Of a stretch of 64,000 nucleotides of DNA, positions 881 through 63,169 are shown in pieces. The notes under the pieces were generated by a model. It made no database searches. It had not been told where the DNA came from and saw only the letters and a list, made by a program, of their open reading frames with translations. Both the position numbers and the translations under genes were made by a program. The stretch spans positions 32,001 to 96,000 of the IMG/VR virus record IMGVR_UViG_3300032309_001546; one strand, written 5' to 3'. This DNA is from a virus. Position 1 is the stretch's first letter, and each line of letters begins with the position of its first letter.

Positions 881-1987
881 CTATTTTAGTATTTCATTAG
901 CGATTTTAGCTAACGCAGTTTTTCTAAATAAAACTGGCTGTTTAATCCCCATGGACTTTAGCCATTCTTTTAATTCAATAGGATTTTGCTCTTTATGATT
1001 GAGCAATCCATATCTCTTACAGATATACTCTTTTTCTAAAGGTAAAAGATTATCTAGTACCGAAAGAAAACTCAAGCAAAACGTAACATGATCCATGTTC
1101 ATATCTATTGCTTGGAGATGTTCATCTTTCTTCTCACGATCTACGATGTCAGTCATAGGATCTTCAATCAACGCATGTTCATTATTGTACATTGCTATTT
1201 GATTGTATGGAGTATAGCTATAGATAAAACTAAAAGCATGAGAGACGTTGCTTTCTTTCATCTTAGTTAATTTAGCTAGTTCACTAACTGTCTTATGAGA
1301 GTAGGGAACATTGTGTCTTCTAATTGCTCCTAGGACTTTAGTTATATCAATTGTCAGGTGGACTGGCAAGCGAATTAATCTAGCCTTGTTACTTAAGGCG
1401 CGGGTAATCTTTTGCTTCACCCACCAAGTAGCGTAGGTTCCTAGCTTAACATTCTTGTTAGGATCATAACGGTCGATGGCATATAGAAATCCAAATACTC
1501 CCTCTTGGATAAGGTCATCCACAGACAGGCCTTTACCAGCATAACTGTTAGCAATCTTAAGGATAAGGCGAAGGTTATGAGCAATAAGAGTTTCTTGTAG
1601 TTCTTTGAATATGTCGTCATAGGGCATAATTCCTATAAGGTAATTAAGTTCTTCTTTCTCCGCGACAAGAAGACCATGAGTAATGTCATCATTATCTTTT
1701 GCTAATTTTTCATCAACAATAGACAATCGATCTTTCATGTTTGAGAATTGTTGCTTCAGATAGAAGTACTTGCAAGCAAGACGATGCATTTCTGCATCTT
1801 TCATTCTGGGATGGTTTTTGATATATTCGCTAAGATAAGCAATGCTATCTTTTTCCATGCCATATATAACTGAAGTGGATTCATTCTTAACATGATGATC
1901 GTATGTTAGACTTGTTTTCTTTCTTCGATCAGGAATTATAATATCTATCTTAACTTTGGGAGTTACGCTATTCGGATTCTTGTTCAT
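881..1987 (-). CDS. sigma70-family RNA polymerase sigma factor
   Basis: HNLRLILKIA, DDLIQEG, DRYDP, TYATWWVKQ, RLIRLPVH = regions 2.1-3.0; region 4 divergent. Confidence 0.9.
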   Translation of the reverse strand: MNKNPNSVTPKVKIDIIIPDRRKKTSLTYDHHVKNESTSVIYGMEKDSIAYLSEYIKNHPRMKDAEMHRLACKYFYLKQQFSNMKDRLSIVDEKLAKDNDDITHGLLVAEKEELNYLIGIMPYDDIFKELQETLIAHNLRLILKIANSYAGKGLSVDDLIQEGVFGFLYAIDRYDPNKNVKLGTYATWWVKQKITRALSNKARLIRLPVHLTIDITKVLGAIRRHNVPYSHKTVSELAKLTKMKESNVSHAFSFIYSYTPYNQIAMYNNEHALIEDPMTDIVDREKKDEHLQAIDMNMDHVTFCLSFLSVLDNLLPLEKEYICKRYGLLNHKEQNPIELKEWLKSMGIKQPVLFRKTALAKIANEILK

Positions 1988-3155
1988 CGCTTGATTCTCC
2001 TACAAGTGAAATTCGCTCAATGTCAGTGACATCTAATTTTGTTAAGTCTCTGGGAGTACCATTTGTCTCATAGCATATATTCTTGAATGGACAATAGCTA
2101 CAATTCCAATCGCCTTTCTTAACTTTCTTGCCTTTACTGAAAAGCTCCATGTCAACTTTTGATAGCTCTTTGCGACCAGCTAGTAAAGCAATCTTAGTCT
2201 GGTCATAGAATAATTCAAAGTCTCTTACTGGCAATGTTTCATTCTCTAAGTGAGTATGAAGTTCTTGATAGCGTTGGAGTATATGCTCAGCATATAAATC
2301 ATACTTGTAAGGTTGTCTATCTACATAGACTCTATGTAAGTACTTGCCACTGGCAATCTTTTCTTTAACAAGATCAATGTCGAACTCTTTACGTTCTCCA
2401 TTTTCACGATTGATATAGGCAAGCTTCCAGTAACGATATTCTTTTTTCAATATACAGAAGTACATATGATAAAGAATAGACTGAAGTAAATGCTCTGGCT
2501 TTGGCTCAGGAATGCTTAACCAATGGCCTTTCTTGCTCTTTACTCCAAAGACTTGTCTTGGTCCTTTGTATCCTGAGATACTCTTAATCTCAATGCCTAC
2601 AATGTTATCTGTTTTAATTTCTTTTGGATCTATAGATGGATTGCCGTCTCTATCAAATGTAGGAAGAGTGTAGTCTTCTTTGTTTGGTATTGCAACTGCA
2701 AGATCTAATTCACCACTGATAACAGGCTTTAATGCTTTATATGGGAAAGGAAGTTCCCATTTAAATCTAAGGCTATTTGTTTCATATACACAAGCTCTTT
2801 TGCTTTCATCCGTAATAGCTATTTCTGCATACTTACTTAATGAAAACTTCCAAAGCTCTTTAGGTGTGAAAGGCTCAGCCGCAAGAACATGATCAAGATT
2901 AGGCTTGACATTGGTTGCCTCCATTCTTTGAATCATAGCTCTAAACCATGACTTGCGAAGGCATCCTCCAATAATAAGATCCTCATCGTGTTCGTTTTTA
3001 ATCTTTGCGCTAGCTTCACTGGGATATAAATTTATATCTGGTCGAAGACGGCTTGGTTGATTACCAATACTTCGATCTAAAGTTTGCCAAAAAGAAAAAG
3101 GGTACTGCTCACTAGCCAGCACCACTTCTTTCTTCTTGCTAGTTTTCTTTGCCAT
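1968..3155 (-). CDS. Cas4-like/PD-(D/E)XK exonuclease with Fe-S staple cysteines
   Basis: PSEA..GGCLRKSW, SGELD, GIEIKS, QxxxY, C-terminal CSYCPFKNIC; start moved to MAKK (RBS AGAGG). Confidence 0.7.
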   Translation of the reverse strand: MAKKTSKKKEVVLASEQYPFSFWQTLDRSIGNQPSRLRPDINLYPSEASAKIKNEHDEDLIIGGCLRKSWFRAMIQRMEATNVKPNLDHVLAAEPFTPKELWKFSLSKYAEIAITDESKRACVYETNSLRFKWELPFPYKALKPVISGELDLAVAIPNKEDYTLPTFDRDGNPSIDPKEIKTDNIVGIEIKSISGYKGPRQVFGVKSKKGHWLSIPEPKPEHLLQSILYHMYFCILKKEYRYWKLAYINRENGERKEFDIDLVKEKIASGKYLHRVYVDRQPYKYDLYAEHILQRYQELHTHLENETLPVRDFELFYDQTKIALLAGRKELSKVDMELFSKGKKVKKGDWNCSYCPFKNICYETNGTPRDLTKLDVTDIERISLVGESSDEQESE

Positions 3156-3195
3156 ACTAGCCTCTGTACGAATATAAGAGAATATTTTAATCAAG

Positions 3196-3268
3196 CTCTG
3201 GCTATAGGATTTGAACCTATGACCTAGAAATTAACAGTTTCCCGCTTCTACCACTGAGCTAAGCCAGA
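3196..3268 (-). tRNA. tRNA-Asn(GTT)
   Basis: Cloverleaf TCTGGCT/AGCCAGA acceptor, GGAAA-CTGTTAA-TTTCT anticodon arm, ATAGG-TTCAAAT-CCTAT, discriminator G. Confidence 0.9.
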
Positions 3269-3317
3269 TCATGATTAATATTTTTATATTAACTTCTTTA
3301 ATACTTTTGTCAAGGGA

Positions 3318-3683
3318 TTAAAGAACAGAGATATCTACTTCCTTGCTAGCAACAGGCTGAGCTCCAGCGGCTGGGGCAGCAGCCTTATCAGCATGAGCTT
3401 GCATTTCCTTCATCTTCTCTTCAGCGTCTTTGATAATCTTTGTATTATGTTCCGCAAAGCGCTTAGTGAACTCTTCAATGCCAATAGAGCTTCCCATTTC
3501 TTTTAGGAAGTCAACAATTGTTGCAGACAGTGCCGCAACAGTGTAGCCTTGGAAGACGCCAAAGTTATTATTGATCATCATGAATAGATTATTCATGTAC
3601 TTGTTTACTTCATCTCGGGTAGGATTACCGGCCATGAAATCTTCGTTTACGCTATCTGGCTCAGTCTTAATCTCTTCGTTCAT
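3318..3683 (-). CDS. hypothetical protein
   Basis: ORF with GAGG RBS, in operon context. Confidence 0.7.
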   Translation of the reverse strand: MNEEIKTEPDSVNEDFMAGNPTRDEVNKYMNNLFMMINNNFGVFQGYTVAALSATIVDFLKEMGSSIGIEEFTKRFAEHNTKIIKDAEEKMKEMQAHADKAAAPAAGAQPVASKEVDISVL

Positions 3684-3693
3684 TCTGTACCTC

Positions 3694-4854
3694 TTACTTT
3701 AAGTAATTTAATGTTCCGCAATACTTAACGTCAGTCTCGTTAAATAATGTATTGCCATCTTCGTCTTGGTAAATGACTGCATATCCTAATGTAACTGCTT
3801 CCTTTGTAAACTTAGCACTGCGCTGATAGTCCATCAACTTAACCAAACAACCTTGTTCCATTACAAGTTTACCCTTGTAGACAAGCTTACCTAGCTTATG
3901 TGTATGTCCCATGACAACGCAATCGTAACTATCCCATTCTAGGAAGTTTTGTAAATAATCGCAAGCTTTAACTACAGTGCCTAGAGGAGCGCTGAGATAG
4001 GTGCTTGGGTGCAAGAATACGGTTTTATTTAGTTGGAGAATCCAAGGGTTACCCTGTGGATTGTATATTACGTTTGGTAGTTCTACAGTGCCAACATGTG
4101 CACCATCTTCATCTAAGATATAACCCTTTGCTAGATAGTATAGAGTGTCTTTACATGCAAACATTTGCATGGTGGGATCAATCTTATTAGCAAAGTATTT
4201 TTCAAGTCTATGCTCGTGGTTGCCACGCACGATATAAACTTGAGGAAAGATTCCAGCAACTTTACGAACAAACTCTAAAGCCATTGTATACTCTAGATGC
4301 ATTGGAATATTCTTATCCTTGGCAAAGCTACTAGCGGCATAGCCATCGAGTAGGTCGCCATTAAGAACAAGAATGTCTGCATCCTTATGTAGCTCAATAA
4401 CTTCGTCAATTAGTTCTTGGTTTTGGAATGGAAAATGAATATCACTTAAACTAAGAATCTTAATTGCTGCTTCTGCAGTGCTAGCCTTCTTAGTCAGATA
4501 AACCTTATCCTTGGCGTCTTTAACAGCTTCAAGATAGGCTTGTATACTACCTGCCTTCTCAACATCCTTAGTAACGTCCTTGGGGTCTTCTGCGCTTGCT
4601 AAAGCCTGGATAACAGTTGGCTTAGTCGGGCCAATCTTCTTAGTCTTGATATTCTTACTACTAGGAATCTTATAGTAATTAATAATCTTATTCAGGGTAG
4701 AAGTGGCTTTAGGATTCTCACCCTTCTGTACTTCTATTGCGCCTCTCTTGGCAAGGCGCTCTAGCGTGTGTCTAGATATATTGTACTTAATACATAGTAA
4801 AGTACCAGGAATCCAAGTATCAAGATCTTCTTTCTGCCAAATAACTGTATTCAT
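3694..4854 (-). CDS. metallophosphoesterase with N-terminal HTH-like region
   Basis: SDIH, NGDLLD, GNHE, GHTH motifs. Confidence 0.85.
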   Translation of the reverse strand: MNTVIWQKEDLDTWIPGTLLCIKYNISRHTLERLAKRGAIEVQKGENPKATSTLNKIINYYKIPSSKNIKTKKIGPTKPTVIQALASAEDPKDVTKDVEKAGSIQAYLEAVKDAKDKVYLTKKASTAEAAIKILSLSDIHFPFQNQELIDEVIELHKDADILVLNGDLLDGYAASSFAKDKNIPMHLEYTMALEFVRKVAGIFPQVYIVRGNHEHRLEKYFANKIDPTMQMFACKDTLYYLAKGYILDEDGAHVGTVELPNVIYNPQGNPWILQLNKTVFLHPSTYLSAPLGTVVKACDYLQNFLEWDSYDCVVMGHTHKLGKLVYKGKLVMEQGCLVKLMDYQRSAKFTKEAVTLGYAVIYQDEDGNTLFNETDVKYCGTLNYLK

Positions 4855-4863
4855 ATATGGACC

Positions 4864-7278
4864 TTACTTTATTAAGGTAATTTTTCCGACTGGGCGAATC
4901 CTTAAGAAATCATCTTTCTTAGTTGCTTTGTAGGAGAAAAATAATAGGGAACAATAGTCAAGCTTTTCTTTCAGTTCTTCGTATTGATCTGAGAACAGCG
5001 TGACTTCTGATATAGAAGATAAATCTTCGATTGTCAATGTTGCCATTAATTTTCCTTTTGATTTACCGCTTTTGATTTGCTGTTCTTTAATATGAGATAC
5101 CGCGACGAGCAGATTGCCTTCGTTGCTATTTGTCTCATCAATATCTTCTATCTGATTAATTAAGATTCCGGGTGGAGTCTTAGTAATATAAGATAGTGGA
5201 TGGCGACTAATAAAGAACTTACAATACTCTGATTCCCACTTAACAATTTGCAGTGGGACTTTATAGTCAGACGTTTTCTTGATAGATTCTAGGTCAGGGA
5301 AAGTAGGCTGATCAGGAACTTTAAGAACTAATGGCTTCTTAGGTCTTGGTTCTGAATACACTTTCTTACCATCTGAGTCTATACTTAAACTAATTACGCC
5401 TGCCTTTAATCTTGCAGACCAATCGTCGAGCAAGGCGGGATAAGCATCTACTTCCTTGTTACGCTCAAAGGCTTGAACTATTCTTGTTTGATAGTTTTCA
5501 ACCTTTGTATAGTAATCAAAGATATCAGAAAGCTTATCTACAAGCTTGACTCTGTCGTAGCCAAAGCTATCGAATGCGCCGACCTTTGCAAGTATACTAA
5601 CAACACCAGAATTAATCTTTGTGCGATTGATTCTAGTAAAGAAGTCAGCCATGCTTGTAAAAGACTTGCGACCGCGTGCCTTAAGTATAAGGTCACTAGC
5701 TTTGTTACCGATGCCATTGATCATGCCAAGGCCAAACAAGATAGTATTGTCATCCAACTTAGTAAAACCAATATCACTATTGTTAATACTAGGTGGAAGA
5801 ATGTTGTAACCCATCTGGCGATACTCGTTGATATATCTGACTAGCTTCTCAGGCTTACCACTTCTGACAGTCATTAGCGTAAGCATAAAGTCTGTAGGAT
5901 AGTAAGTCTTAAGATAAGCATTGAAGTAAGTAATGAAGGCATAAGCAAGAGCATGACTCTTATTAAAACCATACTCAGCAAATGCTGCAATGACATTCCA
6001 AATACGAGTTGCCTCTCCCATATCAATCTTATGAAGACGAGCACAGCCATCTACAAAAAGTGTGCGATATTCTGCCATCAATGTAGCATCTTTCTTGCCC
6101 ATTGCTTTTCTAATCTTATCAGCCTCTTGGAGTGTTACTCCTGCAAGTATCTGACAAGCGGCCATAATCTGTTCCTGATAAATAAGAACACCGCCGGTCT
6201 CAGCAAGTACATCATCAAGTAATGGATGTAACTTATTCTGAGTCTGACGAGTCTTCTTATAGTCAATGTAGTCCTGAAGCAGACCTGAGTCACGAGGACC
6301 AGGACGATTAAGAGCTGAGAAAACTGCAAGATCCTGGACACTCTGTGGCTTGAGATCGGCTACAAGTTTTAGTAGATAAGTCTCTTCCATCTGGAATAAG
6401 CCAGCTGTGAATCCTTTATTGATTAATTCAAACACATTGGGATCATCAGTAGGAACTTCTTCCTCTAGCCACTTGAGTGACTTACCAATACGCTTACAAG
6501 TAAGATCGTTAATTGTAAGGCAATCGATTCTAAGAATGTCGAACTTAATAAAGTTCATTTTCTCTAGAGTTGGACCTTCCCATTGGGTAAGATTGAACCA
6601 GTCTGCGCCTTCAGTCTTGCTCTTCCGGATTGGAATCATCTGATCTACTGGACTTGTGCCAATAAGAACTGCACTAGCATGAACGCTAACTTCCTTTGCT
6701 TGTCCATCTACTGGTCCGCAAAGGCTAAAGATATCTTGATTAGCTTCTACAATCTTTTTGATGTGTTCGCTATTGTCTTCGATTAGTTCTTTATAAGTTA
6801 CATACTTGCCACGGTGACTTTCAGGCAAGCTGTCAGCTAACCGTTCCGCATCGGCAATAGTTCTATATGTGCCATCTGCATGCTTAAGTAACTTAGTGAA
6901 AGCTTTAACGCTTGTCTTAAGAGACCAAGGCTTATAGGTAGATACACGAAGAACACGATCATGACCATACTTAGTTTGCAGTGCCTTGATTAGATCATCA
7001 GCACGAACATTACAAAAGTCAGTATCGATATCCGGGCCTTCGCCATCAACATGATAAGTAACACGCTCATCCGGATTATAAGTGTCAGACAAGCCAAGCG
7101 CATATAGTAATGCAGAGTTACTTTTATTAGCAAGTTTTGCTTTAGACTCAAAGGCCTTGTTGATAAAAGCTAGAGTTTCATCGGTAAGATACCTGACCTC
7201 AAAGTCCAAGTAGTCTTTGCTTATTACATTTAATCTATCATCTGAATAGAATTTATTAAGGTTTTTCTTGTTGATCAT
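4864..7278 (-). CDS. dnaE: DNA polymerase III alpha, C-terminal part (palm Asp, fingers, HhH, OB)
   Basis: PDIDTDF, SVHASAV, KFDIL, GLFQME, ALNRPGP, YQEQIM, YGFNKSHA, C-terminal OB fold. Confidence 0.93.
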   Translation of the reverse strand: MINKKNLNKFYSDDRLNVISKDYLDFEVRYLTDETLAFINKAFESKAKLANKSNSALLYALGLSDTYNPDERVTYHVDGEGPDIDTDFCNVRADDLIKALQTKYGHDRVLRVSTYKPWSLKTSVKAFTKLLKHADGTYRTIADAERLADSLPESHRGKYVTYKELIEDNSEHIKKIVEANQDIFSLCGPVDGQAKEVSVHASAVLIGTSPVDQMIPIRKSKTEGADWFNLTQWEGPTLEKMNFIKFDILRIDCLTINDLTCKRIGKSLKWLEEEVPTDDPNVFELINKGFTAGLFQMEETYLLKLVADLKPQSVQDLAVFSALNRPGPRDSGLLQDYIDYKKTRQTQNKLHPLLDDVLAETGGVLIYQEQIMAACQILAGVTLQEADKIRKAMGKKDATLMAEYRTLFVDGCARLHKIDMGEATRIWNVIAAFAEYGFNKSHALAYAFITYFNAYLKTYYPTDFMLTLMTVRSGKPEKLVRYINEYRQMGYNILPPSINNSDIGFTKLDDNTILFGLGMINGIGNKASDLILKARGRKSFTSMADFFTRINRTKINSGVVSILAKVGAFDSFGYDRVKLVDKLSDIFDYYTKVENYQTRIVQAFERNKEVDAYPALLDDWSARLKAGVISLSIDSDGKKVYSEPRPKKPLVLKVPDQPTFPDLESIKKTSDYKVPLQIVKWESEYCKFFISRHPLSYITKTPPGILINQIEDIDETNSNEGNLLVAVSHIKEQQIKSGKSKGKLMATLTIEDLSSISEVTLFSDQYEELKEKLDYCSLLFFSYKATKKDDFLRIRPVGKITLIK

Positions 7279-7576
7279 AATCGTCCAATAAACAATGTTT
7301 AAGAAATACTTGTCTGAAAAGATTTAAAGTTTCCTTTTTCTTCTCAGAGTCACTTGTCCAGTAATGACGAAAAAATAAATACAAAAAAGTAAAGAATGGA
7401 ACTTTATAGATCCAACCTAATTTTTCATGCCAAGTTTGAGTATGGTCTAGCGTAAAACTTTTTACTGGAGAAAAAGTCTCAGTTTCTTTGTTCCAAGTAT
7501 ACTTCTCTTTAAAAACTTTTCTGTAAGATAACTTCTCAGGTGTATATACTATAGACTTTTCATTAGACATTTTCAA
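7256..7576 (-). CDS. hypothetical protein between the two dnaE halves; one hydrophobic segment
   Basis: ORF overlaps stop of dnaE-N and start of dnaE-C; WIYKVPFFTFLYLFF. Confidence 0.6.
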   Translation of the reverse strand: MKMSNEKSIVYTPEKLSYRKVFKEKYTWNKETETFSPVKSFTLDHTQTWHEKLGWIYKVPFFTFLYLFFRHYWTSDSEKKKETLNLFRQVFLKHCLLDDYDQQEKP

Positions 7577-8846
7577 GCTCTTTAATATCTTCTGAGTAGT
7601 CTAAAGTAATTCGGACTCGACCAGGATTGAGAAAGCGCTCGAACAGCAGACCATGTTTAACAGGATCAAGATGCTTAGCTGTGATTCCTAGTGACCATGA
7701 GATCAAAGATCCACCACCAGAACCACGCGCTGGGCCAACAGGTATACCCATATCCTTAGCTAGGCTAACATAGTCTTGAACGACAAGGAAATAGGAACTA
7801 TACCGTGCCTCGTCAATGACTTGGAACTCATATCTAATTCTATCCTTGTAGGCTTTAGGGACATCAGCCCAGCTCTTTACGCCAAGCCGAGATATAAGAC
7901 CAGCCTTAGCCTTCTTAAGAAGCATTAGGCTTGTCCCCTCAGGCGTCATTCCTTCAAGCTGAAGATTCGGTGCCTTAGTTACTCGCTCAAAGTATGAGCC
8001 ATCTACAAGATCTGCTACATGCTGAGTATTAGTGATTGCTTCATGTGGTAACTGCCAGTCATCACAAAGAGTCTTTGCGAACTCTGCATCATACATCCAA
8101 GCATTATGATCTTGAACTTCATATGGCATTGTGTCTGGAGTCTTATGCATGCTCACACACATAACATAGCTACGCAACTTGTACTGATCTTGGTTCTGAT
8201 GATGAGCATCAGCTGTAAGTACAAGAGGAATATTCTTGCGTTTGCTTAGATCAATTAGATATTGATTGTAACCATACTGCTTTTCAACATTATTATGCTG
8301 AAGCTCTAAGAAGAAGCTGTCGTCGCCGACCGCCTCCTTAACTTCATCACACCATCTATCTATCTTTGCATGTTCACCCCAGTGCCAATACTTAAAGCAC
8401 TGACTACTGATACAAGTACTAGTAGCAATTAAGCCTTTAGCGTGTTGCTTAAAAGTATCTAGATCGATACGAGGATAGCGATAAAAGCCATCTTCATATG
8501 AATACTTAGTAAGCTTCATTAAGTTCTTATAACCTTCTTCGTTCTTAGCAAGTAATAGGAAGTGGCCATTGTTAACTGCTTTCTCGGCTACGCCATTCTC
8601 TGGCATAAAATCAGACTTAGTCTTGGCATCGCCAAAAGCAAGATATGTTTCATTACCAATGATAGGCTTTACGTTAGCAGCACGACAGCCCTTTACAAAT
8701 TCTGGGATGCCACCCATATATCCATGATCTGTCAATGCAACTGCATTCATTCCTCTGGCAGCAACAGTCTTACCCATTTCATCGGCTGGCTGTAAGCCAT
8801 CAAGCAATGAGTAGTAGCTATGCGCATGGAGATGTACCATTCCCAT
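7563..8846 (-). CDS. dnaE: DNA polymerase III alpha, N-terminal part (PHP domain and start of palm)
   Basis: HLHAHSYYSLLDG, ALTDHG, LLAKN, TADAH, GPARGSGGGS, LLFERFLNPGR. Confidence 0.93.
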   Translation of the reverse strand: MGMVHLHAHSYYSLLDGLQPADEMGKTVAARGMNAVALTDHGYMGGIPEFVKGCRAANVKPIIGNETYLAFGDAKTKSDFMPENGVAEKAVNNGHFLLLAKNEEGYKNLMKLTKYSYEDGFYRYPRIDLDTFKQHAKGLIATSTCISSQCFKYWHWGEHAKIDRWCDEVKEAVGDDSFFLELQHNNVEKQYGYNQYLIDLSKRKNIPLVLTADAHHQNQDQYKLRSYVMCVSMHKTPDTMPYEVQDHNAWMYDAEFAKTLCDDWQLPHEAITNTQHVADLVDGSYFERVTKAPNLQLEGMTPEGTSLMLLKKAKAGLISRLGVKSWADVPKAYKDRIRYEFQVIDEARYSSYFLVVQDYVSLAKDMGIPVGPARGSGGGSLISWSLGITAKHLDPVKHGLLFERFLNPGRVRITLDYSEDIKELENV

Positions 8847-8902
8847 ATTATTCTCTCGTTTAAGTTTAAAGATTAATAAAACACCAATAGGCGACAAGGC
8901 TA

Positions 8903-9854: not shown

Positions 9855-11291
9855 TTACAAAAGTAGTTTGTTGTACCTCTCAAGAAACTCAGATTTAGCA
9901 AATTTTTTGTAATCACTAGGCAGTATTAGATAGAAGTTTTCAGGAATAAGTTCTTTTTGTATTTCAGGAATTATGCCGTCCGTAAAGCAAAGCACTGCAT
10001 CATATTTATATCTTCCGTTGTATTGGCCAATTATTTTTAACGCCGGATTCAAATCTGTGCAGCCACCGCCTTTCCATTCAATCGTCTCTGCAAAGTTCTT
10101 ATTTCTTGCCTTCTCTATGTCTCCTCTCACCTCGCTATCATTCATAACATAATGAACACTAGCATAACTTGCTAGCTTCCTTAAATAAGATACAAACTTT
10201 TCAGCAAGCTGAGTATCAATACTTCCAGAAGTGTCGAAAATACAAGCAATTAGAGGCTTGTCTGATTTCTTAGGACCAGGTAGGATTCCAGGCAAAACTA
10301 CGTTATAGCTTGCCCATGAGACACCTGTCTTGTATCTTTTGCCAGGTCGGTTTAGAGTCTTTAGAAAAAGAACAGCATCTCCTTCGTAAGGTTTTACCTC
10401 AATATTTTTACTGTCAAATTTATCTAATTTCTCGAATGAAAGAAACGGAGTAGTATTAATTTCAACAATTTTTGCAATTTGTTTTTCAATTGAACTAATT
10501 CTTTCATTTTGTTCTTCCTCGGAGATATCACTATCATCAAGGACCATGTCCATACTTAACTGATTTATTTCTTTTTGTTCTTGCTTTTCTATAAAGTCTT
10601 GATAATCGGGACTATTTTTTAGCCAGTTAAAGATTTCTTTAGCTGTAACATTATAGATTCCTTTTCTTAATCCATATTCTGCATGGAACAACTTACTGTT
10701 AGGATGTAAATAGTAAGCAGATAAATCAGGATGAGCAAAAGCAGCTTGCTCATCAATGCGGAAAGCATTGAAGAAAAACTTACCTTGTGCATTCTGCAAA
10801 GGATAATTTACAAAATCACTTGGATCATCTAGTTGAGTAAAAGATTCTACATATTCATAAAGTAACTCAGTATTAATTTTCATGTCCTGAGCAACATTCA
10901 TAAGATAGCGATCTTCAGCTGGGACCTTAAACATAGAAACAGGATGAGCATAAACAAAATGCTTTAGCTCATGTAGCAAGATAAAATAGAAAGTCTTATC
11001 ACTTAATCTGCTAATGTTATCTATGTTAAAGTATAAAGCATATTCTTTAGTACTAGGAGTCCAGGCGATACAAGCTATAAACTCAGGATTAAAACCTTGA
11101 CCTGTAGCTTCTTCTTTGGTTAAGAAGTATCTGTCTAGACAAATCAAGTACTCAGATAGATTAATAAATGTATAAGCAATTGCATATGGGATGTAATCAG
11201 TAATAGGACTGTCTTTGCCCTCCTTGATAGCAATCAAAGAGCGACAAAGATCAGTAATCTTATTAGCGTAAATCTTTTTTAAAGCATCCAT
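9855..11291 (-). CDS. HExxH metallopeptidase-like + VWA protein (DUF2201-like), copy 1
   Basis: LLHELKH, NVAQD..IN, DTSGS MIDAS, GGGCTD, FTDG. Confidence 0.8.
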   Translation of the reverse strand: MDALKKIYANKITDLCRSLIAIKEGKDSPITDYIPYAIAYTFINLSEYLICLDRYFLTKEEATGQGFNPEFIACIAWTPSTKEYALYFNIDNISRLSDKTFYFILLHELKHFVYAHPVSMFKVPAEDRYLMNVAQDMKINTELLYEYVESFTQLDDPSDFVNYPLQNAQGKFFFNAFRIDEQAAFAHPDLSAYYLHPNSKLFHAEYGLRKGIYNVTAKEIFNWLKNSPDYQDFIEKQEQKEINQLSMDMVLDDSDISEEEQNERISSIEKQIAKIVEINTTPFLSFEKLDKFDSKNIEVKPYEGDAVLFLKTLNRPGKRYKTGVSWASYNVVLPGILPGPKKSDKPLIACIFDTSGSIDTQLAEKFVSYLRKLASYASVHYVMNDSEVRGDIEKARNKNFAETIEWKGGGCTDLNPALKIIGQYNGRYKYDAVLCFTDGIIPEIQKELIPENFYLILPSDYKKFAKSEFLERYNKLLL

Positions 11292-23415: not shown

Positions 23416-23432
23416 GGCCGGCGCAGCCGGCC
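23416..23432. repeat. GGCCGGC-GCA-GCCGGCC hairpin, copy 1 of 3
   Basis: Identical 17-mer at 23416, 47173, 55938, all intergenic. Confidence 0.9.
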
Positions 23433-32152: not shown

Positions 32153-33301
32153 TTATTCGTAGTCTCTTAATGCTTTCGCATATGGAAACCTAGGTACCCC
32201 ATCAGGGGTTAGATTGAAATATTGAATAGTTACCTGCTTACCTATAAGTGAATCCTTGTTCTCCCATAGTCTTACAAGATACTCATGAGGGCCCATAATA
32301 TTACTATTAAAGTGGCGACCATCTGACATGACCAGGGTAAATGCCCCAGCCATGCCAGACTTGTTCCCCTCGCCCTCAACAACACCAACAATTTCATATT
32401 CGCTATCGATAAACTTCTTAAGCTTTAGAAGATTCTTACTTCGCTTATTTTCATAAGCAGTATTTCTTCTAAGCATAAGACCCTCATATCCTTCCTTAAG
32501 ATATGCAGTAAGCTTAGCCTGGACTTCTTCCTGGCTGTTTACAGTGTGCGTTTCAACTGTTGTGACATATTTCATGTCGATCAGTTTCATACCAAACGTA
32601 TTGTATTGCTTAAAAAACTTAAGACGATCAATGAAGTTACCATCTACCATGTTGTCGTAGCACCAGAACTGAATATACTTCTTGCTTTCAGCAAGTTGCG
32701 CATCATCAATCTTCTGGCGCTTAACAAGTTCTACAATCCTATTAAAGTTATCTTTAAATTCATGATTGTAAAGTTCACCATCTAGCTGGACATCCGGGCA
32801 CTTCTCAAAGAATGACTCAAGAGCTGAGTTAATATGAGGGCATGAAACAATCTTTTCATTGTTTCTAGTCCACATACCATCCTTATTGATCCTGCATCGA
32901 ATGCCATCGAGCTTAGGTTGAGTATAAGCGGGCCAAGTAATGTCATCTGCATAGTCATCGTAATTCTTAGCGAGCATTACCTGATAGGGTAAAGCCTCAT
33001 CTACATTATCGACAGTCTCAGTATAACCCTTCTTGATCTGTTTATCCCACTTAGCTTTTGCTTCCTTTGCAGCTTGGTCAGCTGCAGTAGTCGCATTCTT
33101 CTTGCCAACATTCATTGGCTCACAAACAGTAGGCTTACTGGTAGTCTTAACACCATCAATATGCCCACTGGTTGTATAAAATGAACCATTACCTAAAACG
33201 GCAATGGTCCATTCCTCAATCTTATTGCCATTTACTTTCTTATAAAGTGTAGGTAAAAAGTAATTAGTTACAACATCATCAACAGTTTCTAGCTCTGCCA
33301 T
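32153..33301 (-). CDS. ATP-dependent DNA ligase
   Basis: MLAK, QPKLDGIR, LDGELY, YEGLMLR, LLKLK, VPRFP. Confidence 0.92.
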   Translation of the reverse strand: MAELETVDDVVTNYFLPTLYKKVNGNKIEEWTIAVLGNGSFYTTSGHIDGVKTTSKPTVCEPMNVGKKNATTAADQAAKEAKAKWDKQIKKGYTETVDNVDEALPYQVMLAKNYDDYADDITWPAYTQPKLDGIRCRINKDGMWTRNNEKIVSCPHINSALESFFEKCPDVQLDGELYNHEFKDNFNRIVELVKRQKIDDAQLAESKKYIQFWCYDNMVDGNFIDRLKFFKQYNTFGMKLIDMKYVTTVETHTVNSQEEVQAKLTAYLKEGYEGLMLRRNTAYENKRSKNLLKLKKFIDSEYEIVGVVEGEGNKSGMAGAFTLVMSDGRHFNSNIMGPHEYLVRLWENKDSLIGKQVTIQYFNLTPDGVPRFPYAKALRDYE

Positions 33302-34350
33302 GCAAAGTAGTCCTCCCAATTAACAAATTCTGGATGATCAGAGAAAATAACATCTTCCTCAAGAAGATTAGAGCATTCGCCCTCGATGATCTCTGCAATA
33401 GTAGTCTGCATTTCTTTGAGTGTCTTGCATGTAACAAGCTCGTCGCGAAAGCGGAACTTAAATGGGTTACCTTCTTCTATCTTAGTTAGAATGTCACCTT
33501 TATTAAGTACAACGCAGGTGACGCCAGACAGGCGAATCGCAGCAATCATCTTATCAAGATTAAGATAATTAACAATTCTTTGACGTCCGGTTGTAATACC
33601 TTGTTCCTTGCCAATTCTGCCAATCTCAGCAAGAACTGGATCCTGCATTAAACTAACAGGAAACATAGGATCTGCCCCACTCTTAGTGTCGTACATCTTA
33701 CCAATGCCAATAATGCGAGTAATATCCATAGGCGAGAAGCCAAGTGAACAAGCATTATAAGGCAAAGTAGAACTACTAGTAACGTAAGGATAAGATCCAT
33801 GATCGATGTCTAGCCAGACACTCTGCGCGCCTTCTGCAAGGATAGAACCAAAAAGTTTCTCATCCCAGATCCACTTGGGATCAAGAACTTCAGCTGCACG
33901 AATTCCTTTACGCAACATCTTATCTGAGTAGCACGGAGCAATACCTTGCCCTGTAGTCCCAAGATGCGAAAGATAATTAGTGTCATAGCTAATGTGATCT
34001 TGAGTAATTACATGAGCCTTAGGTGAAACCTTAACAAGACTCGTATCAAATCTATTAACTTCTAGATAAGCAATCTCTGCCATGAACTTGCTAATATTGA
34101 TTACACAAGCAGGGCCGATAATGCTAGGAACACCGTGGAATACACCACTAGGGATAAGATGAGTCTTGTACTGCTTACCATCCAAGTAAACAGTATGACC
34201 TGCATTAGGGCCGCCGTTAAAGCGACAGACAAAGTCATAGTGTTGGTAATTAACCAATGAACTAACGACCTTGCCCTTGCCCTCGTCACCCCAAGCAAGC
34301 CCAACAACAACATCTACTGTATCAATCTCACGAGAATTAGCAAACTGCAT
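33289..34350 (-). CDS. purA: adenylosuccinate synthetase (short form)
   Basis: WGDEGKGK, GGPNAGHT, EGAQ, YPYVTSS, TTGRQR, NKGD. Confidence 0.9.
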   Translation of the reverse strand: MQFANSREIDTVDVVVGLAWGDEGKGKVVSSLVNYQHYDFVCRFNGGPNAGHTVYLDGKQYKTHLIPSGVFHGVPSIIGPACVINISKFMAEIAYLEVNRFDTSLVKVSPKAHVITQDHISYDTNYLSHLGTTGQGIAPCYSDKMLRKGIRAAEVLDPKWIWDEKLFGSILAEGAQSVWLDIDHGSYPYVTSSSTLPYNACSLGFSPMDITRIIGIGKMYDTKSGADPMFPVSLMQDPVLAEIGRIGKEQGITTGRQRIVNYLNLDKMIAAIRLSGVTCVVLNKGDILTKIEEGNPFKFRFRDELVTCKTLKEMQTTIAEIIEGECSNLLEEDVIFSDHPEFVNWEDYFAWQS

Positions 34351-44082: not shown

Positions 44083-45462
44083 CTATAGAACTTCTTTCAT
44101 AATAACAACATCGCCAGGAAACTTTTGGTCTTTGTATTGCTCGCGCTCACCGCGAGTCATAACCCAAAGAATTGGCTTAGTTGTCTTAATAGACGGAGGA
44201 CTACATGCTCCGTCGCTGAAATAAACAAGACAAGTATACTTGCTCTTATTCCTATTCATATACTGAACAGGAGGATCAAAATCAGTACCACCACGGCCAT
44301 AGATTTTAACAGTACTCTTCTTAGAGTATTCTTCAACCTTAGCAATTGCAGCATCGCAATGAAGAAGCGTCATCTTTGCGCCAGTCTTAGAGATAAACTC
44401 TAGTTCTGCCATAAAGTTTGCCAACTCTTGATCGCTAACGCTCCCGCTAGTGTCAATTGCAATAAGCAACTTATGCTTAGGATTGAACTTGAGACCAGGC
44501 TGGCCAAGGAAACGAATAGATTCCTTACGCTTAGTCTTCTTTACAACTACACTAGTACTTGCAGCAATGAATCTCCTGAAGTAAGCTTTCCAGTTAGTAA
44601 CTGGATCCTTCTTTTCAAGAAGACGATCAATCTCTGAAAGTAGGTTACCAGGGATATAGCCGCGAGCAGTAGAACCAGACTGACGAATAGTCTCATGGTA
44701 AGCTCTACGGACCTGCTGACGACGAATCTCGTCTACAGCTTCCCAGTATCCAGTAGAATCTTCACCAGGCTCAAGGTCTGGCTTGTCCCACTGGCTATGG
44801 CTAGGATCGCCCTGGCCATACATATCCATTAGATTCTGATCTGCCTTGGATGGACCTTTGCCAGACTGACTCTCAGAGTCACCATCTTTATCTCCTGATG
44901 GACCAGGAGAAGATCCTTCTTGCCCATCCTGACCGCCATCAGGACTATCACCAGGATTCTTAGGGCCCTGATCTGGTCCATCACCAGGACAGGGATCTCC
45001 ATAGAATTCCTCAGGATACTCTCCCTTTAGATCTTCAATCTTCTGCTTTAGAAAATCATAGTAGAAGACAGTACCTGCCTTTTCAGGCAAGTTGTAATCT
45101 GGGAAGGTATCCATCTGGATACAACCTTCAGGAAGTTCTGATCTATCAATATACTGATTGATCTCAAGATCAGCAGCAATATTAAAGATCTTATGATCTG
45201 GGCAACGGTTACGATAGTAAGGACTCAAGTGGCCAAGTGAGATATGAAGAATCTCATGCTTTAGTACACCAACCTGATGCTCAGGGGGCATATCAAGATA
45301 CGCACCTTTTCTAAGCAACAACTTAAAGTTGTATCCTTCCATCGCAACTGCTGCAATAGGAATCGAATGATCGATCTCATACTTATTGACACCCAATAGA
45401 TACAATCCGAAGAAAGGATTGTCGTTCATCAATAGCCGAAACGGCTTAGTATATTGTTGCAT
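44083..45462 (-). CDS. HExxH metallopeptidase-like + VWA protein (DUF2201-like), copy 2
   Basis: LKHEILH, NIAADLEIN, G/D/P-rich linker, IDTSGS, GRGGTDF, FSDG. Confidence 0.87.
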   Translation of the reverse strand: MQQYTKPFRLLMNDNPFFGLYLLGVNKYEIDHSIPIAAVAMEGYNFKLLLRKGAYLDMPPEHQVGVLKHEILHISLGHLSPYYRNRCPDHKIFNIAADLEINQYIDRSELPEGCIQMDTFPDYNLPEKAGTVFYYDFLKQKIEDLKGEYPEEFYGDPCPGDGPDQGPKNPGDSPDGGQDGQEGSSPGPSGDKDGDSESQSGKGPSKADQNLMDMYGQGDPSHSQWDKPDLEPGEDSTGYWEAVDEIRRQQVRRAYHETIRQSGSTARGYIPGNLLSEIDRLLEKKDPVTNWKAYFRRFIAASTSVVVKKTKRKESIRFLGQPGLKFNPKHKLLIAIDTSGSVSDQELANFMAELEFISKTGAKMTLLHCDAAIAKVEEYSKKSTVKIYGRGGTDFDPPVQYMNRNKSKYTCLVYFSDGACSPPSIKTTKPILWVMTRGEREQYKDQKFPGDVVIMKEVL

Positions 45463-47172: not shown

Positions 47173-47189
47173 GGCCGGCGCAGCCGGCC
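47173..47189. repeat. GGCCGGC-GCA-GCCGGCC hairpin, copy 2 of 3
   Basis: Exact 17-mer. Confidence 0.9.
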
Positions 47190-55937: not shown

Positions 55938-55954
55938 GGCCGGCGCAGCCGGCC
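55938..55954. repeat. GGCCGGC-GCA-GCCGGCC hairpin, copy 3 of 3
   Basis: Exact 17-mer. Confidence 0.9.
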
Positions 55955-57386: not shown

Positions 57387-57881
57387 TTAGAAGCCGTCTC
57401 CATCCTCGAAGACAAAGTTGTCAGCAGGATTTCCGGCAGTCTGACGACGACGCACAGTAGTACGAGCCACAGCACGGACTGCAGGAGTTGCCACAGGACC
57501 AGCCGCCTTCATCTGCTGAGGAGCTGGAGTAGAAGCAGGTGCTGCTTCCTTGGTTGGCCGGCGACCATAGTTGATCTCATTCGCGACAACTTCAGTGATG
57601 TAGCGGGTCTCACCCTTGCTCTCATACTGACGAGTCTTGATTCGACCCTCGATCTCGGCCTCACTACCCTTTGACAGGTACTTGGCAGCATTCTCTGCAG
57701 CCTTACCCCACACAACAACACGATGCCACTCCGGCTCACTGACCGTCTCTCCCGCCTTATTTACGTACTCGTAATTAGTGCAGATAGACAAAGTAGCCCG
57801 GCTACGGCCAGTTTCAGTCGTAGACAACTTGGGATCATCACCAAGGAAACCACGAAGCTCAACACGATTCTTATTACGCAT
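57387..57881 (-). CDS. ssb: single-stranded DNA-binding protein
   Basis: NRVELRGFLGDDP, EWHRVVVWGK, YLSKG, EGRIKTR, TEVVA, acidic tail. Confidence 0.93.
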   Translation of the reverse strand: MRNKNRVELRGFLGDDPKLSTTETGRSRATLSICTNYEYVNKAGETVSEPEWHRVVVWGKAAENAAKYLSKGSEAEIEGRIKTRQYESKGETRYITEVVANEINYGRRPTKEAAPASTPAPQQMKAAGPVATPAVRAVARTTVRRRQTAGNPADNFVFEDGDGF

Positions 57882-57952
57882 CTCTCATCTCAACTTACCC
57901 ATCCACTGATGGTAATGTTTATTTCAATAAAGCATAATACTCACGATAAAAA

Positions 57953-57968
57953 GCGAGCGCAGCGAAGC
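57953..57968 (+). repeat. GC-GA-GC-GCA-GC-GAA-GC hairpin motif upstream of ssb
   Basis: Member of the GCGCAGC family. Confidence 0.8.
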
Positions 57969-58327
57969 TAATGTATGCCAAGTACAAAGATCTGAAACAT
58001 TGTACTAACAATGCTCAAAAATGTAATGGCAAAGTATAAAACGAAGATCCCACTGATAATGTCCCACAGTGTAGATTTCTTCATGCTAGGAAAAACACTA
58101 TCTCTGAAAGCACATTTGTGAAGAGTACCTTCAGTATCCAAGCTATTCCAATCAACGTAATGATTCTTTGCATTATTACCTCGTAGCTAGAGCCAAGATA
58201 GCAATAGCAGGCCAGATCAGACTAGCCGCAGTATAAGCAAACACAAACCAGACAGGAACCACAACGCTTGCAGTTCCATTGATGTGGCTCATAGTGAAGG
58301 ATACAGTACTCATAAGAATTGACTTCA

Positions 58328-60816: not shown

Positions 60817-61061
60817 TCTCCAGTAAAGAGGTAACATTACCTCTGAGGTTATAAAAAGTGCTCCAGTTTACAGACATGGAGCAAGGTCACGGGACACCAT
60901 TATTTGTGCTCCCCTATACTAGGCTGTTTCTCACCTAGTAATTCAATCATATGGGAATCGAACCCATAACTAGATATCCATAATGGTATATCTAGCGTCA
61001 CCAGACTAATCAAAAGGGTACGGGTCGTCTTATTTGCTAGCGTGCGAACCCCTTCCCAGTC

Positions 61062-61266
61062 GTTACTAGCGAACTAGTAACCACCCCATGTCTATATAAC
61101 TACTAGGGCAGGGGTCCCTAATAATTAGCCCATGTTTACTCTCATTACTCGCGGCAGGGCTCCGCCAGTAATAAACCCTATGTTTATCTCGTTACTAGAA
61201 GCAAGGGACTAACTAGTAACCACCCCGTGTTCATCTTGTCCATTAGTGGCTGAGGCCCACTAACAG
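61062..61266 (-). ncRNA. tandem array of four H-type pseudoknots plus terminal UUCG hairpin
   Basis: 44-49 nt period, covarying P1 and P2, G-U pairs on minus strand. Confidence 0.7.
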
Positions 61267-61470
61267 CCAGCCTATCTTTATAGCCAGGTTTGCAACCCTG
61301 ACACCCCTAGGTTTCCATGAACGGTAGGCGCGTTCATGTGTTTCTAGAAGGATTAGAAGGTGACGTCTTGCAGTACGAACAATAGGGTTTACATCCCCTA
61401 CTATTCGCAATGTAACCTGCGTGACGCCGTAAACTTGTGAGCATTTTATAGACCTACTCAGGTCTGAGGA

Positions 61471-61677
61471 TTACACGAAGAAGCGACGAGCCACGTGAAC
61501 GGCCTCAATGAGAGACTCAGAACCAGTGCTGGCATCTTCCTCGTATTCCTCGAAATCGACAAACTCTTCAGGACTGTCCGGGCGATGGCTCCAGTCGATG
61601 CGGTCAATGACCTCATCTTCGCTACCGACAGGAATGTTGAAGCAATCCTCAAAAGACACGAACTCAACAGGGACCAT
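61471..61677 (-). CDS. small very acidic protein (possible DNA mimic)
   Basis: GGAG RBS; D/E-rich. Confidence 0.6.
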   Translation of the reverse strand: MVPVEFVSFEDCFNIPVGSEDEVIDRIDWSHRPDSPEEFVDFEEYEEDASTGSESLIEAVHVARRFFV

Positions 61678-61726
61678 GACAGACTCCGTTTGTTACGAAG
61701 ACACACATAATGTCTTCACCATGAAA

Positions 61727-61743
61727 GGCGAGCGCAGCGAGCC
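61727..61743 (+). repeat. GGC-GA-GC-GCA-GC-GA-GCC hairpin motif
   Basis: Same as 62195..62211; flanks CATG(A/T)(A/G)A and TAATA shared. Confidence 0.85.
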
Positions 61744-61762
61744 TAATACTGTGTAGCGGAGT

Positions 61763-61800
61763 AAAAATAAAACCCCAACACATCCTACTGTGCTGGGGTT
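61763..61800 (-). terminator. intrinsic terminator
   Basis: AACCCCAGCACA..TGTGTTGGGGTT then TTATTTTT. Confidence 0.75.
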
Positions 61801-62190
61801 CTATCTCTCTATCTCGCATTAGGACACTAGCAGGGTCACTACTAGTTACGAGTCTATCAGCCCAAGAGGAGGCTTATCCAAATCGTAATGCGGAATTGGC
61901 AACCGCACCTGTCTACTTACACTAGAACCCGACAGGCCCTTTCTAGTGCTTTGATACCCGACAACTACTGGTGTGGTATCTACTGGAGTCTTGAGCCCAG
62001 TCTACTCTCCTCCTGGGTACGCCTAACTAGGCTCACCATGCTCCCCCGAGGTTGGGAACATGGGTACGGGGCGCGTAACTGCCCCTTCCCAGTTTTTATG
62101 TTAAGCGGACTGGGAACCGCCCCTGTCTGATACATACCAGAAGCCGACAGGCCTCATCTGGTACGAGTAGCGGTAGCTACTATCCGCCAT
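61801..62190 (-). ncRNA. candidate structured ncRNA with duplicated double-pseudoknot module
   Basis: No minus-strand ORF; many hairpins; two modules with covarying stems. Confidence 0.6.
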
Positions 62191-62194
62191 GTGA

Positions 62195-62211
62195 GGCGAG
62201 CGCAGCGAGCC
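62195..62211 (+). repeat. GGC-GA-GC-GCA-GC-GA-GCC hairpin motif
   Basis: Exact copy of 61727..61743. Confidence 0.85.
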
Positions 62212-62364
62212 TAATAGAATCCTATTACCTGGACTCTGTCTGGCCATACTAGTAATGCAACTATTTTTGGCCGACCCTAGTAAAGGGGTTTCCCCCCGAG
62301 TAGGGGGGTTTCGTGGGGGTAAAAAAGTTCCCCTCCCACACTGTAAGTGTGAGAGGGGGGTTCT

Positions 62365-62844
62365 CTAGTCCCAGTCGCCAGCAACAGGGGCGGACTTGCG
62401 GGCGGCAGGCTTGGCGGCGGGCTTGGCAGGCCTCGCGGGAGCCTTGGCAGCGGGCTTGGCGGGTGCCTTGGCGGGCTCCTCGACAACACCGTGACGACGC
62501 ATAAGCGCCTTCTCGGTGGCCAAGAGACGAATCTGGGCCTTGCTGTACACGATGAGCCTGGTGGCGTTGTGCCAGGCCTTGTCATCGCTCTGCCAGGACT
62601 CCGTCTCGAGGCCTGCCCCGTCGATGTGCACGAAATTGTACCCGCTCTCGTCCGCCTTTGCGACGAACCAGTTCACGAGCTCCTGGCCGACCAGACGCAC
62701 CCGCGTCCAGTTGGTGTCCTCCGTCCCGTAGGACGAACTGACCGAGAAGTCCGCGTACTTTCCGCTGGCCCCGATCACGGGCTGCTTGCCCATGTAGCCG
62801 AAGCCCGAGACCTTGAGGGTGAGAAACTTGCGATTCTGTTCCAT
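62365..62844 (-). CDS. SSB-like OB-fold protein with PAK-rich linker and acidic tail
   Basis: GYMGKQP, FSVSSS, TNWTRVRLVG, LETESW; start MEQNRK with GGAG RBS. Confidence 0.7.
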   Translation of the reverse strand: MEQNRKFLTLKVSGFGYMGKQPVIGASGKYADFSVSSSYGTEDTNWTRVRLVGQELVNWFVAKADESGYNFVHIDGAGLETESWQSDDKAWHNATRLIVYSKAQIRLLATEKALMRRHGVVEEPAKAPAKPAAKAPARPAKPAAKPAARKSAPVAGDWD

Positions 62845-62889
62845 TGACGTTCTCCGTGGTAAGTGAGCCAAAGGCGGCTCATCATGAAA

Positions 62890-63088
62890 GGCGAGCGCAG
62901 CGATGCCTGTGCTGCGGCGTTGTTGCTGTTGCCTGCGTAGCGCAGCGGAGCAGGCTGTGTTGCTACCTGCGGAGCGCAGCGAAGCAGGGTAACCACGTAG
63001 CGCAGCGGAGTGGTGTGTCCTGTGGTTCTGATGAGCGTAGCGCAGCGGAGTGAATCAGAGGCGAGGACTCGGCGCAGCCCAGCGGAGT
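62890..63088 (+). repeat. cluster of six GC-GCA-GC capped hairpins
   Basis: Units at 62890, 62931, 62966, 62992, 63028, 63071. Confidence 0.9.
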
Positions 63089-63169
63089 ATCTGGACTTTT
63101 TTACGACTATTTGTACTATTTTTGTATTATAGAAAGAATAGCCCATTGCTGGGCTACTCAATCTAATGG

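Follow-up and report, generated by a model that had tools for sequence, protein, structure and literature searches.

A spacer beside the predicted RNA polymerase gene of this phage contains a tandem cluster of DNA hairpins, and single members of the same family precede other genes. The structure, conservation and strand polarity of these hairpins are solid. We propose that they are template-strand DNA signals for transcription initiation, N4-like in their working but not of the N4 family, a tentative reading to which we give somewhat less than even credence. The activity of the DNA form, the promoter function and the identity of the reading polymerase are what we infer.

The window, that is the whole stretch of 64,000 nucleotides analysed, corresponds to bases 32001-96000 of a 145.9-kb IMG/VR viral contig with a completeness estimate of 84%. 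Its GC content is ~0.38 and reaches 0.58-0.62 from position 62000 onward; the jump from 0.38 to ~0.6 accompanies the polymerase and SSB-like genes (window coordinates 62000-70000). The hairpin family is common to both sides of this jump, which argues against a chimeric assembly.

A tandem hairpin cluster between an SSB-like gene and a polymerase gene

The cluster sits in a 298-nt spacer, and both bounding genes run leftward. An earlier reading made from the sequence alone (the sequence-only reading) had pointed to adjacent SSB genes; these are confirmed, along with the phage's own predicted RNA polymerase. The spacer and its borders contain the following features.

62330..62358, minus strand: intrinsic terminator, 3' of the SSB-like gene
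62365..62844, minus strand: SSB-like gene, 159 aa, without Pfam match; 24% identity to canonical SSB over the OB region
62889..62908, plus strand: B-type hairpin, AGGC-GA-GCGCAGC-GAT-GCCT; 5' flank CATGAAA conserved; ends 38 nt before the SD-ATG of the SSB-like gene
62931..62955, plus strand: C-type hairpin 1 (C1), GCCTGC-GTA-GCGCAGC-GGA-GCAGGC; kept with covariation in L126 and L127
62966..62988, plus strand: C-type hairpin 2 (C2), CCTGC-GGA-GCGCAGC-GAA-GCAGG
62992..63014, plus strand: C-type hairpin 3 (C3), ACCAC-GTA-GCGCAGC-GGA-GTGGT
63028..63058, plus strand: C-type hairpin 4 (C4), CTGAT-GA-GC-GTA-GCGCAGC-GGA-GT-GA-ATCAG
63081..63088, plus strand: AGCGGAGT box (gene-sense ACTCCGCT), adjoining the sixth GCGCAGC of the cluster at 63072
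63103..63127, minus strand: boxA-like element (ATACAAAAATAGTA...), of the early promoter-like class, without canonical boxB
63136..63159, minus strand: intrinsic terminator of the polymerase gene, almost identical in L139
63170..64000, minus strand: 3' end, within the window, of the 2265-aa gene (whole extent 63170-69967), with a predicted two-barrel RNA polymerase core, DUF4326 and a YpsA-type SLOG domain

The four-hairpin cluster that had been described at 62890-63088 reads as claimed. Its C-type hairpins, four tandem copies at 62931-63058 on the plus strand, have the layout stem-GNA-GC-GNA-GC-GNA-stem: a two-pair GC stem topped by a C-GNA-G triloop, an internal loop of 3x3 GNA/GNA with sheared G.A closing, and a free outer stem, to which C4 adds a tandem G.A and one G.T. 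The 13-nt core GNAGCGNAGCGNA occurs four times in the window, always on the plus strand (0.08 expected from shuffles; 0 of 100 shuffles reach 4). The kinship with the extra-stable DNA mini-hairpin GCGNAGC that had been suggested is borne out by the presence of the C-GNA-G triloop and the sheared G.A elements.

GCGCAGC itself is found 14 times against 4.2 expected. Twelve copies lie on the plus strand, in agreement with the common orientation noted before, and the two minus-strand copies (8992 and 12683) are without hairpin context. All but one of the plus-strand copies are in hairpins, which form three classes across the contig: A (3 copies), B (4) and C (4, tandem). The loop centre is C in all 11. 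The twelfth copy (63072), beside the conserved AGCGGAGT box, is not of this hairpin type. Folding energy of the whole region does not differ from that of shuffled sequence (z -0.96) and is not significant on either strand; the signal consists of local structure and conservation, not of bulk stability.

Rfam 15 found only tRNAs in the window; the cluster was empty at E up to 10, as were 12 related loci. Other known elements were rejected individually: a tRNA-like reading of GTAGCGCAGCGG (ARAGORN gives no tRNA at the cluster), a hammerhead (C4 has CUGAUGA without the remainder of the core), a CsrA sponge (GGA is unconserved), a CRISPR-like array (the spacing is irregular), a REP/RAYT element (its GTAG sits outside the stem) and a T5-type nick site (without evidence). 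Separately, GCGCAGC in the B hairpin at 62889 has an alternative partner, GCTGCG at 62913-62920 (window 62895-62920); this pairing is kept in relatives and represents a possible structural switch.

Single hairpins precede leftward genes

The A-type hairpins and the remaining B-type hairpins are single copies:

23416..23432, plus strand: A-type perfect hairpin, 16 nt past a stop codon and 34 nt before an SD-ATG
47173..47189, plus strand: A-type perfect hairpin, 46 nt before an SD-ATG; scored as a minus-strand terminator too
55938..55954, plus strand: A-type perfect hairpin, GGCCGGC-GCA-GCCGGCC, 57 nt before an SD-ATG
57387-57881, minus strand: canonical SSB gene (PF00436)
57952..57969, plus strand: B-type variant, AGC-GA-GCGCAGC-GAA-GCT, 63 nt before the ATG of the canonical SSB gene
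61726..61744, plus strand: B-type hairpin, ~20 nt past a strong terminator (61765-61805, minus) and 42 nt before the ATG for a 68-aa acidic protein
62194..62212, plus strand: B-type hairpin, AGGC-GA-GCGCAGC-GA-GCCT, preceding an ORF-poor stretch

All three A-type copies have the sequence GGCCGGC-GCA-GCCGGCC. The B-type copies (57952, 61726, 62194 and 62889) share the consensus AGGC-GA-GCGCAGC-GA-GCCT and a conserved CATGAAA flank, and the copy at 62889..62908 is almost invariant in relatives. Single copies are placed between intrinsic terminators and the RBS and ATG of leftward genes, which include those for the canonical SSB and the SSB-like protein; 34-63 nt separate the end of an A- or B-type hairpin from the SD-ATG. 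Of the functions listed in the sequence-only reading, a hairpin promoter fits this order (terminator, hairpin, ~40-60 nt, SD-ATG) best. Hairpin promoters had been among the roles considered in the sequence-only reading, and these positions speak for them, the function itself being what we infer; nothing supports the injection-stop or nicking site that had been listed next to them.

Intrinsic terminators and REP-like palindromes resemble these elements in being intergenic and GC-rich, and the A-type hairpins, followed by U-rich tracts in gene sense, do combine a GC-rich RNA stem with a direct U tract. The B-type hairpins do so weakly (UUUCAUG tail, mismatched stem) and the C-type do not. In contrast to terminators and REP elements, moreover, the B- and C-type hairpins have conserved purine mismatches, no U tract, and G.A features strictly on the antisense strand.

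The ORF-poor stretch of 1.5 kb (window 60840-62330) contains repeated hairpins (GTTACTAG...CTAGTAAC, then CACCCC), two B-type hairpins, the strong terminator at 61765-61805 and the 68-aa acidic ORF. Some of its elements may be non-coding RNAs.

The hairpins are conserved with compensatory stem changes

Public proteins 75-96% identical to the giant 2265-aa protein exist. In the corresponding contigs, L126, L127 and L128, the cluster is kept at the same place and on the same strand, and its stems covary. The outer stems vary and yet stay complementary, as had been claimed: the C2 stem CCTGC/GCAGG, for example, is replaced by CCCCGC/GTGGGG in L126, a compensatory change, and L127 has other hairpins of the same grammar at the C4 position, such as CTTAC-GCA-GCGCAGC-GGA-GTAAG. 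Among these close relatives each of the three GNA units keeps its G and A without exception; the middle base varies in the internal loops (T, G, A, C), and the triloop is GCA or GTA. In L126 and L127, B-type hairpins are found 40-48 nt before called genes.

Hairpins with GNA and GA elements are also present in phages whose polymerase is only ~30% identical. L142 (31%) has GGCC-GA-C-GAA-G-GA-GGCC hairpins with covarying stems, located 3' of terminators and ~35-45 nt before an SD-ATG. In L139 (28%), a C-type hairpin with GAA as its loop lies in the spacer from the YpsA/DUF4326 gene to the SSB gene, together with two of the five copies of AGCACGCC-GAA-GGCGGGCT, an element with one A.G mismatch; one hairpin of this phage lies ~52 nt before the canonical SSB gene. 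In L138 (32%), the syntenic 1.1-kb spacer has GG-GA-GC-GGA-GC-GA-CC units in tandem, along with perfect hairpins whose caps are GAA, GTA or GGA. The loop centre follows lineage, being C or T in L126 and L127 and A or G only in the distant L138, L139 and L142.

Complementarity was scored in 14 cores from close and more distant polymerase-bearing loci, for which stems were no selection criterion: all 14 have complementary flanks, and 60 of 70 stem positions are Watson-Crick. In an alignment of 30 copies, 88% of cells pair against 64% in shuffled sequence, double changes number 65 against 21, and sliding the register destroys the signal; these figures are descriptive, since the alignment includes copies picked for having stems. 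Blastn of the region against a phage database gave no relative, and a search of viral contigs for related loci with the SSB-like protein, the polymerase segment and alignment A2 gave nothing usable.

Only the template strand has the folding grammar

Under a strict grammar (outer stem of at least 4 pairs, symmetric GA or GNA loops and a C-GNA-G cap), this genome, L126, L127, L139 and L142 together have 16 hairpins on the template strand and none on the opposite strand, with at most 0.1 in shuffles. These strand statistics agree with the polarity noticed before. A loose census of C-GNA-G hairpins had too high a background to reveal a strand bias. The plus strand is the template strand of the leftward genes, and nearest-neighbour calculations give its B- and C-type hairpins 2-5.5 kcal/mol more stability than their complements. 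The invariant positions are structurally sensible on this strand only, where they form the C-GNA-G triloop and the sheared G.A pairs that close the 2x2 or 3x3 loops; their complement consists of U/C mismatches. Counts of G.T and A.C in stems (4 and 2) do not discriminate between strands.

This polarity bears on an alternative, which we regard as unlikely, in which the hairpins act in gene-sense RNA. They would then be a structured 5' leader on the SSB-like mRNA or, in transcripts that read through, attenuators, terminators or sites for protein binding. In that RNA the C-type hairpin would read stem-UNC-GC-UNC-GC-UNC-stem: the invariant positions become U and C, pyrimidine mismatches without a known stabilising role, and the weaker complement of C4 barely folds. 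The C-type hairpins have no U tracts, and the clear terminators of the phage carry RNA-type UUCG or GCAA loops on the sense strand, unlike the hairpins. B-type hairpins also lie right behind strong terminators; the 61726 copy is squeezed so closely between its terminator and the ATG that there is no room for another promoter. On the other side, the flanking genes are all leftward, the A-type hairpins have U-rich tails, one of them scored as a terminator, and a weak sigma70-like site is found upstream of the 57952 hairpin.

A second class of promoter-like elements

The possible role in RNA also gains from the elements that precede the cluster. About 15 early intergenic cassettes lie upstream of the polymerase gene (window coordinates 70220-77619, minus), with a terminator (UUCG or GCAA loop), a near-palindromic boxA ATACTTAAATAGTA, a variable spacer and boxB ATGGGCTAAAnTGTGG, in this order. 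Each has a small gene downstream, and one of them stands before the polymerase gene. They make up a second promoter-like class. The hairpin spacer opens with the same terminator and boxA-like element, ACTCCGCTGGGCT, of which ACTCCGCT is a part, replacing boxB, so the terminator, boxA-like element and ACTCCGCT box precede the cluster in the manner of these early promoter-like sites, and the cluster may merely be transcribed as a leader. If the ACTCCGCTGGGCT/boxA-like site is a working promoter, the cluster would be inside a leader of ~220 nt, which would keep a role at the RNA level alive. The AGCGGAGT/ACTCCGCT box is syntenic and on the template strand in L138, L139 and L142, and is near a gene start in L141. 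The ~15 boxA/boxB elements could themselves be the promoters of the two-barrel enzyme.

The neighbouring gene encodes a predicted two-barrel RNA polymerase

Pfam recognised only the C-terminus of the 2265-aa protein, as DUF4326 and a YpsA-type SLOG domain. Residues 560-1650, searched exhaustively with HMMER, gave 20 homologues, and their alignment revealed invariant RxP and GDxDD, with conserved RNPxGxTSG and GGDxDD in the central module. The AlphaFold model of residues 575-1255 (pLDDT 83, pTM 0.83) matched QDE-1 in Foldseek (E 3e-5, probability 1.0), as well as RDR2, crAss-like phi14:2 gp66, P23-45 gp96 and P32 gp64. The metal-binding Asp loop, DxDD / GDxDD, is one residue shorter than DxDGD. 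On the strength of this model, the protein contains a two-barrel (DPBB) RNA polymerase of the QDE-1 / crAss gp66 type. A feature search of the ESM Atlas with the polymerase segment gave no usable match.

The whole protein consists of hydrophobic N-terminal segments, Ala/Pro/Lys-rich repeats, the polymerase core, an acidic linker, DUF4326, zinc ribbons and the YpsA-type SLOG domain. Some homologues are instead fused to a PIF1 helicase or a HIRAN domain, which indicates a polyvalent-protein architecture; no PIF1 helicase was found in this contig. The phage also encodes a sigma factor (phrog_351; window 881-1987, minus), thus it combines its own polymerase with a redirected host polymerase.

Polymerases of the N4 or T7 type were not found: the contig, 84% complete by estimate, contains no match to phrog_2206, phrog_414 or PF00940, and BLASTP of the giant protein against N4 gp50 was not significant.

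A possible signal for transcription initiation

If the hairpins are template-strand initiation signals, they would work as follows. Supercoiling or unwinding would open the inverted repeat, and the purine-rich arm on the template strand would stay folded, probably with the help of phage SSB. The folded arm would then mark the start point for a polymerase, for which the obvious candidate is the phage's own two-barrel enzyme, encoded directly upstream. The tandem cluster would be a multi-site version of this signal ahead of the SSB-like gene.

The early promoters P1-P3 of phage N4 provide the closest likeness. There too, a GC-GNA-GC heptamer with inverted repeats, in which the C-G closing pair and the G and A of the loop are conserved, is located on the template strand tens of nt before start codons, and SSB is involved. 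In the N4 sequence (EF056009), which we read directly, TTGC-GAA-GCAA and GAAGC-GGA-GCTTC are on the template strand upstream of gp1 and gp2. An N4 promoter needs inverted repeats on both sides of a GC-rich heptamer. Extrusion requires the 5' G and the 3' A of the loop as well as the G:C pair that closes it, and recognition involves positions -11 (a purine), -10 and -8 (both G) and +1 (C). N4 transcripts begin at this fixed +1C, in a manner dependent on supercoiling and on SSB, which melts the non-template arm and stabilises the template-strand hairpin. The hairpins described here do have the heptamer GC-GNA-GC with a free N (GCA and GTA in this lineage; GAA, GGA and GTA in L138, L139 and L049).

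The differences are as clear. The polymerase is predicted to be two-barrel here and is T7-like in N4. The loop centre is C or T, with a purine (A/G) only in L138, L139 and L142, whereas N4 needs a purine. Of the three classes only the A-type matches the uninterrupted 5-7 bp stem of N4, the B and C stems being broken by GA/GA or GNA/GNA loops. Finally, copies occur here four or five in tandem, and sites extend over ~40 kb instead of being at one genome end. Given the pyrimidine centre, the broken stems, the tandem copies and the failure to find a T7-like enzyme, these signals would at best be N4-like in their working, outside the N4 family. To have called the region an undescribed early-infection system was thus too strong, because its logic matches that of N4 and the core is also found in contigs without a match to this polymerase; the interpretation given in the sequence-only reading is partly supported overall.

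What is known of two-barrel enzymes bears on the initiation reading in both directions. QDE-1, which requires RPA and a helicase, and gp66 both favour single-stranded DNA as template. The latter transcribes single-stranded and not double-stranded DNA, and its early transcripts have no common upstream motif. The phage polymerases P23-45 gp96/gp64 and crAss-like gp66 have the same polymerase fold as the one predicted here, and hairpins are unreported for this class. The two polymerases of P23-45, however, use linear motifs, AT-rich or GC-rich, which counts against hairpin promoters. Moreover, extrusion from duplex DNA should be poor for hairpins that contain 3x3 mismatches. A more specific scenario is that single-stranded hairpin promoters evolved for a two-barrel polymerase independently of N4, marked by sheared G.A pairs, assisted by SSB and multiplied in the cluster as a multi-site landing pad; we hold it to be rather doubtful.

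DNA-hairpin promoters have so far been found only in N4-like phages with a T7-like virion polymerase. The same grammar, with G.A internal loops in addition, is present here in an unrelated lineage, on the template strand and with compensatory changes. If the more specific scenario is true, it would point to what the undefined early promoters of the two-barrel class look like; the result offers a testable candidate for how these enzymes find start sites, and a possible reason why SSB genes travel with them. Should the role instead be in RNA or in replication, the hairpins would still be an unusually clear, conserved module of purine mismatches.

Conjugative plasmids have a different single-stranded promoter, Frpo, in their leading regions, ahead of ssb and anti-defence genes. 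Like the candidate signals it is a folded single strand before an ssb gene, but instead of a GNA mini-hairpin it forms a long hairpin, which imitates a -35/-10 duplex and so serves the host polymerase.

Replication signals, antisense RNA and coding sequence

Single-stranded DNA also figures in a quite unlikely alternative, in which the hairpins are replication signals, SSB-free landmarks for priming or an origin. GCGNAGC and CCGAAGG mini-hairpins are found at the priming sites of phage G4 oric and RSF1010 ssiA and bind SSB poorly. Heptamer grammar, strand specificity and the proposed folded landmark in SSB-coated ssDNA are common to those signals and the hairpins, the phage encodes a Toprim primase-helicase (genome 30323-32872) and two SSB-type genes, the cluster is in an ORF-poor region, and the mixed orientation seen in unrelated contigs fits replication polarity better than transcription. 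Priming would not predict the regular placement of single copies from terminator to SD-ATG in several lineages, however, and GC skew has no turning point in the window. Primases of the T7-gp4 type recognise short trinucleotides and not hairpins, which counts against priming. In addition, the known priming signals are one or two sites at the origins of single-stranded replicons, whereas those described here recur before genes of a 146-kb double-stranded phage.

Still less probable is a small plus-strand RNA, antisense to the leader of the SSB-like gene, that would contain the hairpins with their G.A motifs and end at the T-run 63097-63102. RNA of the plus strand would form the same hairpins, and the region does close with a hairpin and a T-run; in the unrelated L048 and L037, long hairpins are capped by the motif and flanked, on the motif strand, by promoter-like sequences and T-runs. 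Against this, no conserved plus-strand promoter was found, the T-run is not kept in L138 or L139, Rfam gives no match, and each of the seven dispersed single hairpins would require an antisense RNA of its own.

That the repeats are a by-product of a translated 128-aa ORF (62775..63161, minus), named in the sequence-only reading as one of two findings that would overturn it, can practically be discarded (the other, relatives that lose the pairing, is contradicted by the covarying stems): the frame is open in this window, but it starts with TTG and overlaps a terminator and the start of the SSB-like gene, coding cannot yield compensatory stem changes, and the ORF is not conserved, since relatives have spacer indels that would shift a reading frame (5 or 4 nt, for example, no multiples of three) and do not agree in their longest stop-free frame.

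The motif outside this lineage

An IMG/VR scan for GTAGCGCAGCGGAG gave at least 119 loci, most of them expected by chance. Stems of at least 4 pairs were present at ~17 of these loci against ~3 expected, some with 8-10 pairs, each of different sequence. The motif-bearing records that were searched had no match to this polymerase module or to the N4 vRNAP, which is weak evidence of absence, and tblastn of 160 ORFs of the phage against the 119 loci carrying the 14-mer found no shared neighbouring protein. In the motif-bearing contigs without a polymerase match, the motif occurs in both orientations relative to genes and its stems covary. The module is thus a more general stable cap that other systems use too, and the co-occurrence of hairpins and polymerase may reflect the common descent of these phages.

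One such case is a provirus lineage (L049, L018 and L105) with seven one-strand copies in a non-coding array, their loops being GAA, GCA, GGA and GTA. In L049 this array (2700-6100, minus) is 3.4 kb long, located upstream of the head-tail adaptor and portal genes, and built of repeated modules of strong hairpins and T-runs, with seven hairpins capped by GTA-GCGNAGC-GGA on one strand.

Two further observations concern genes elsewhere in the window. The DNA polymerase (phrog_405) is contained in two ORFs ~285 nt apart (4864-7278 and 7563-8897, minus), and HNH endonuclease genes are found near the split gene (9855-11291 and 44083-45462). An adenylosuccinate-synthetase homologue (33289-34350, minus) matches a PHROG family annotated as PurZ-type enzyme, and adenine may be replaced by 2-aminoadenine in the phage DNA; this would alter A:T pairing in the hairpin stems and leave the sheared G.A geometry unaltered.
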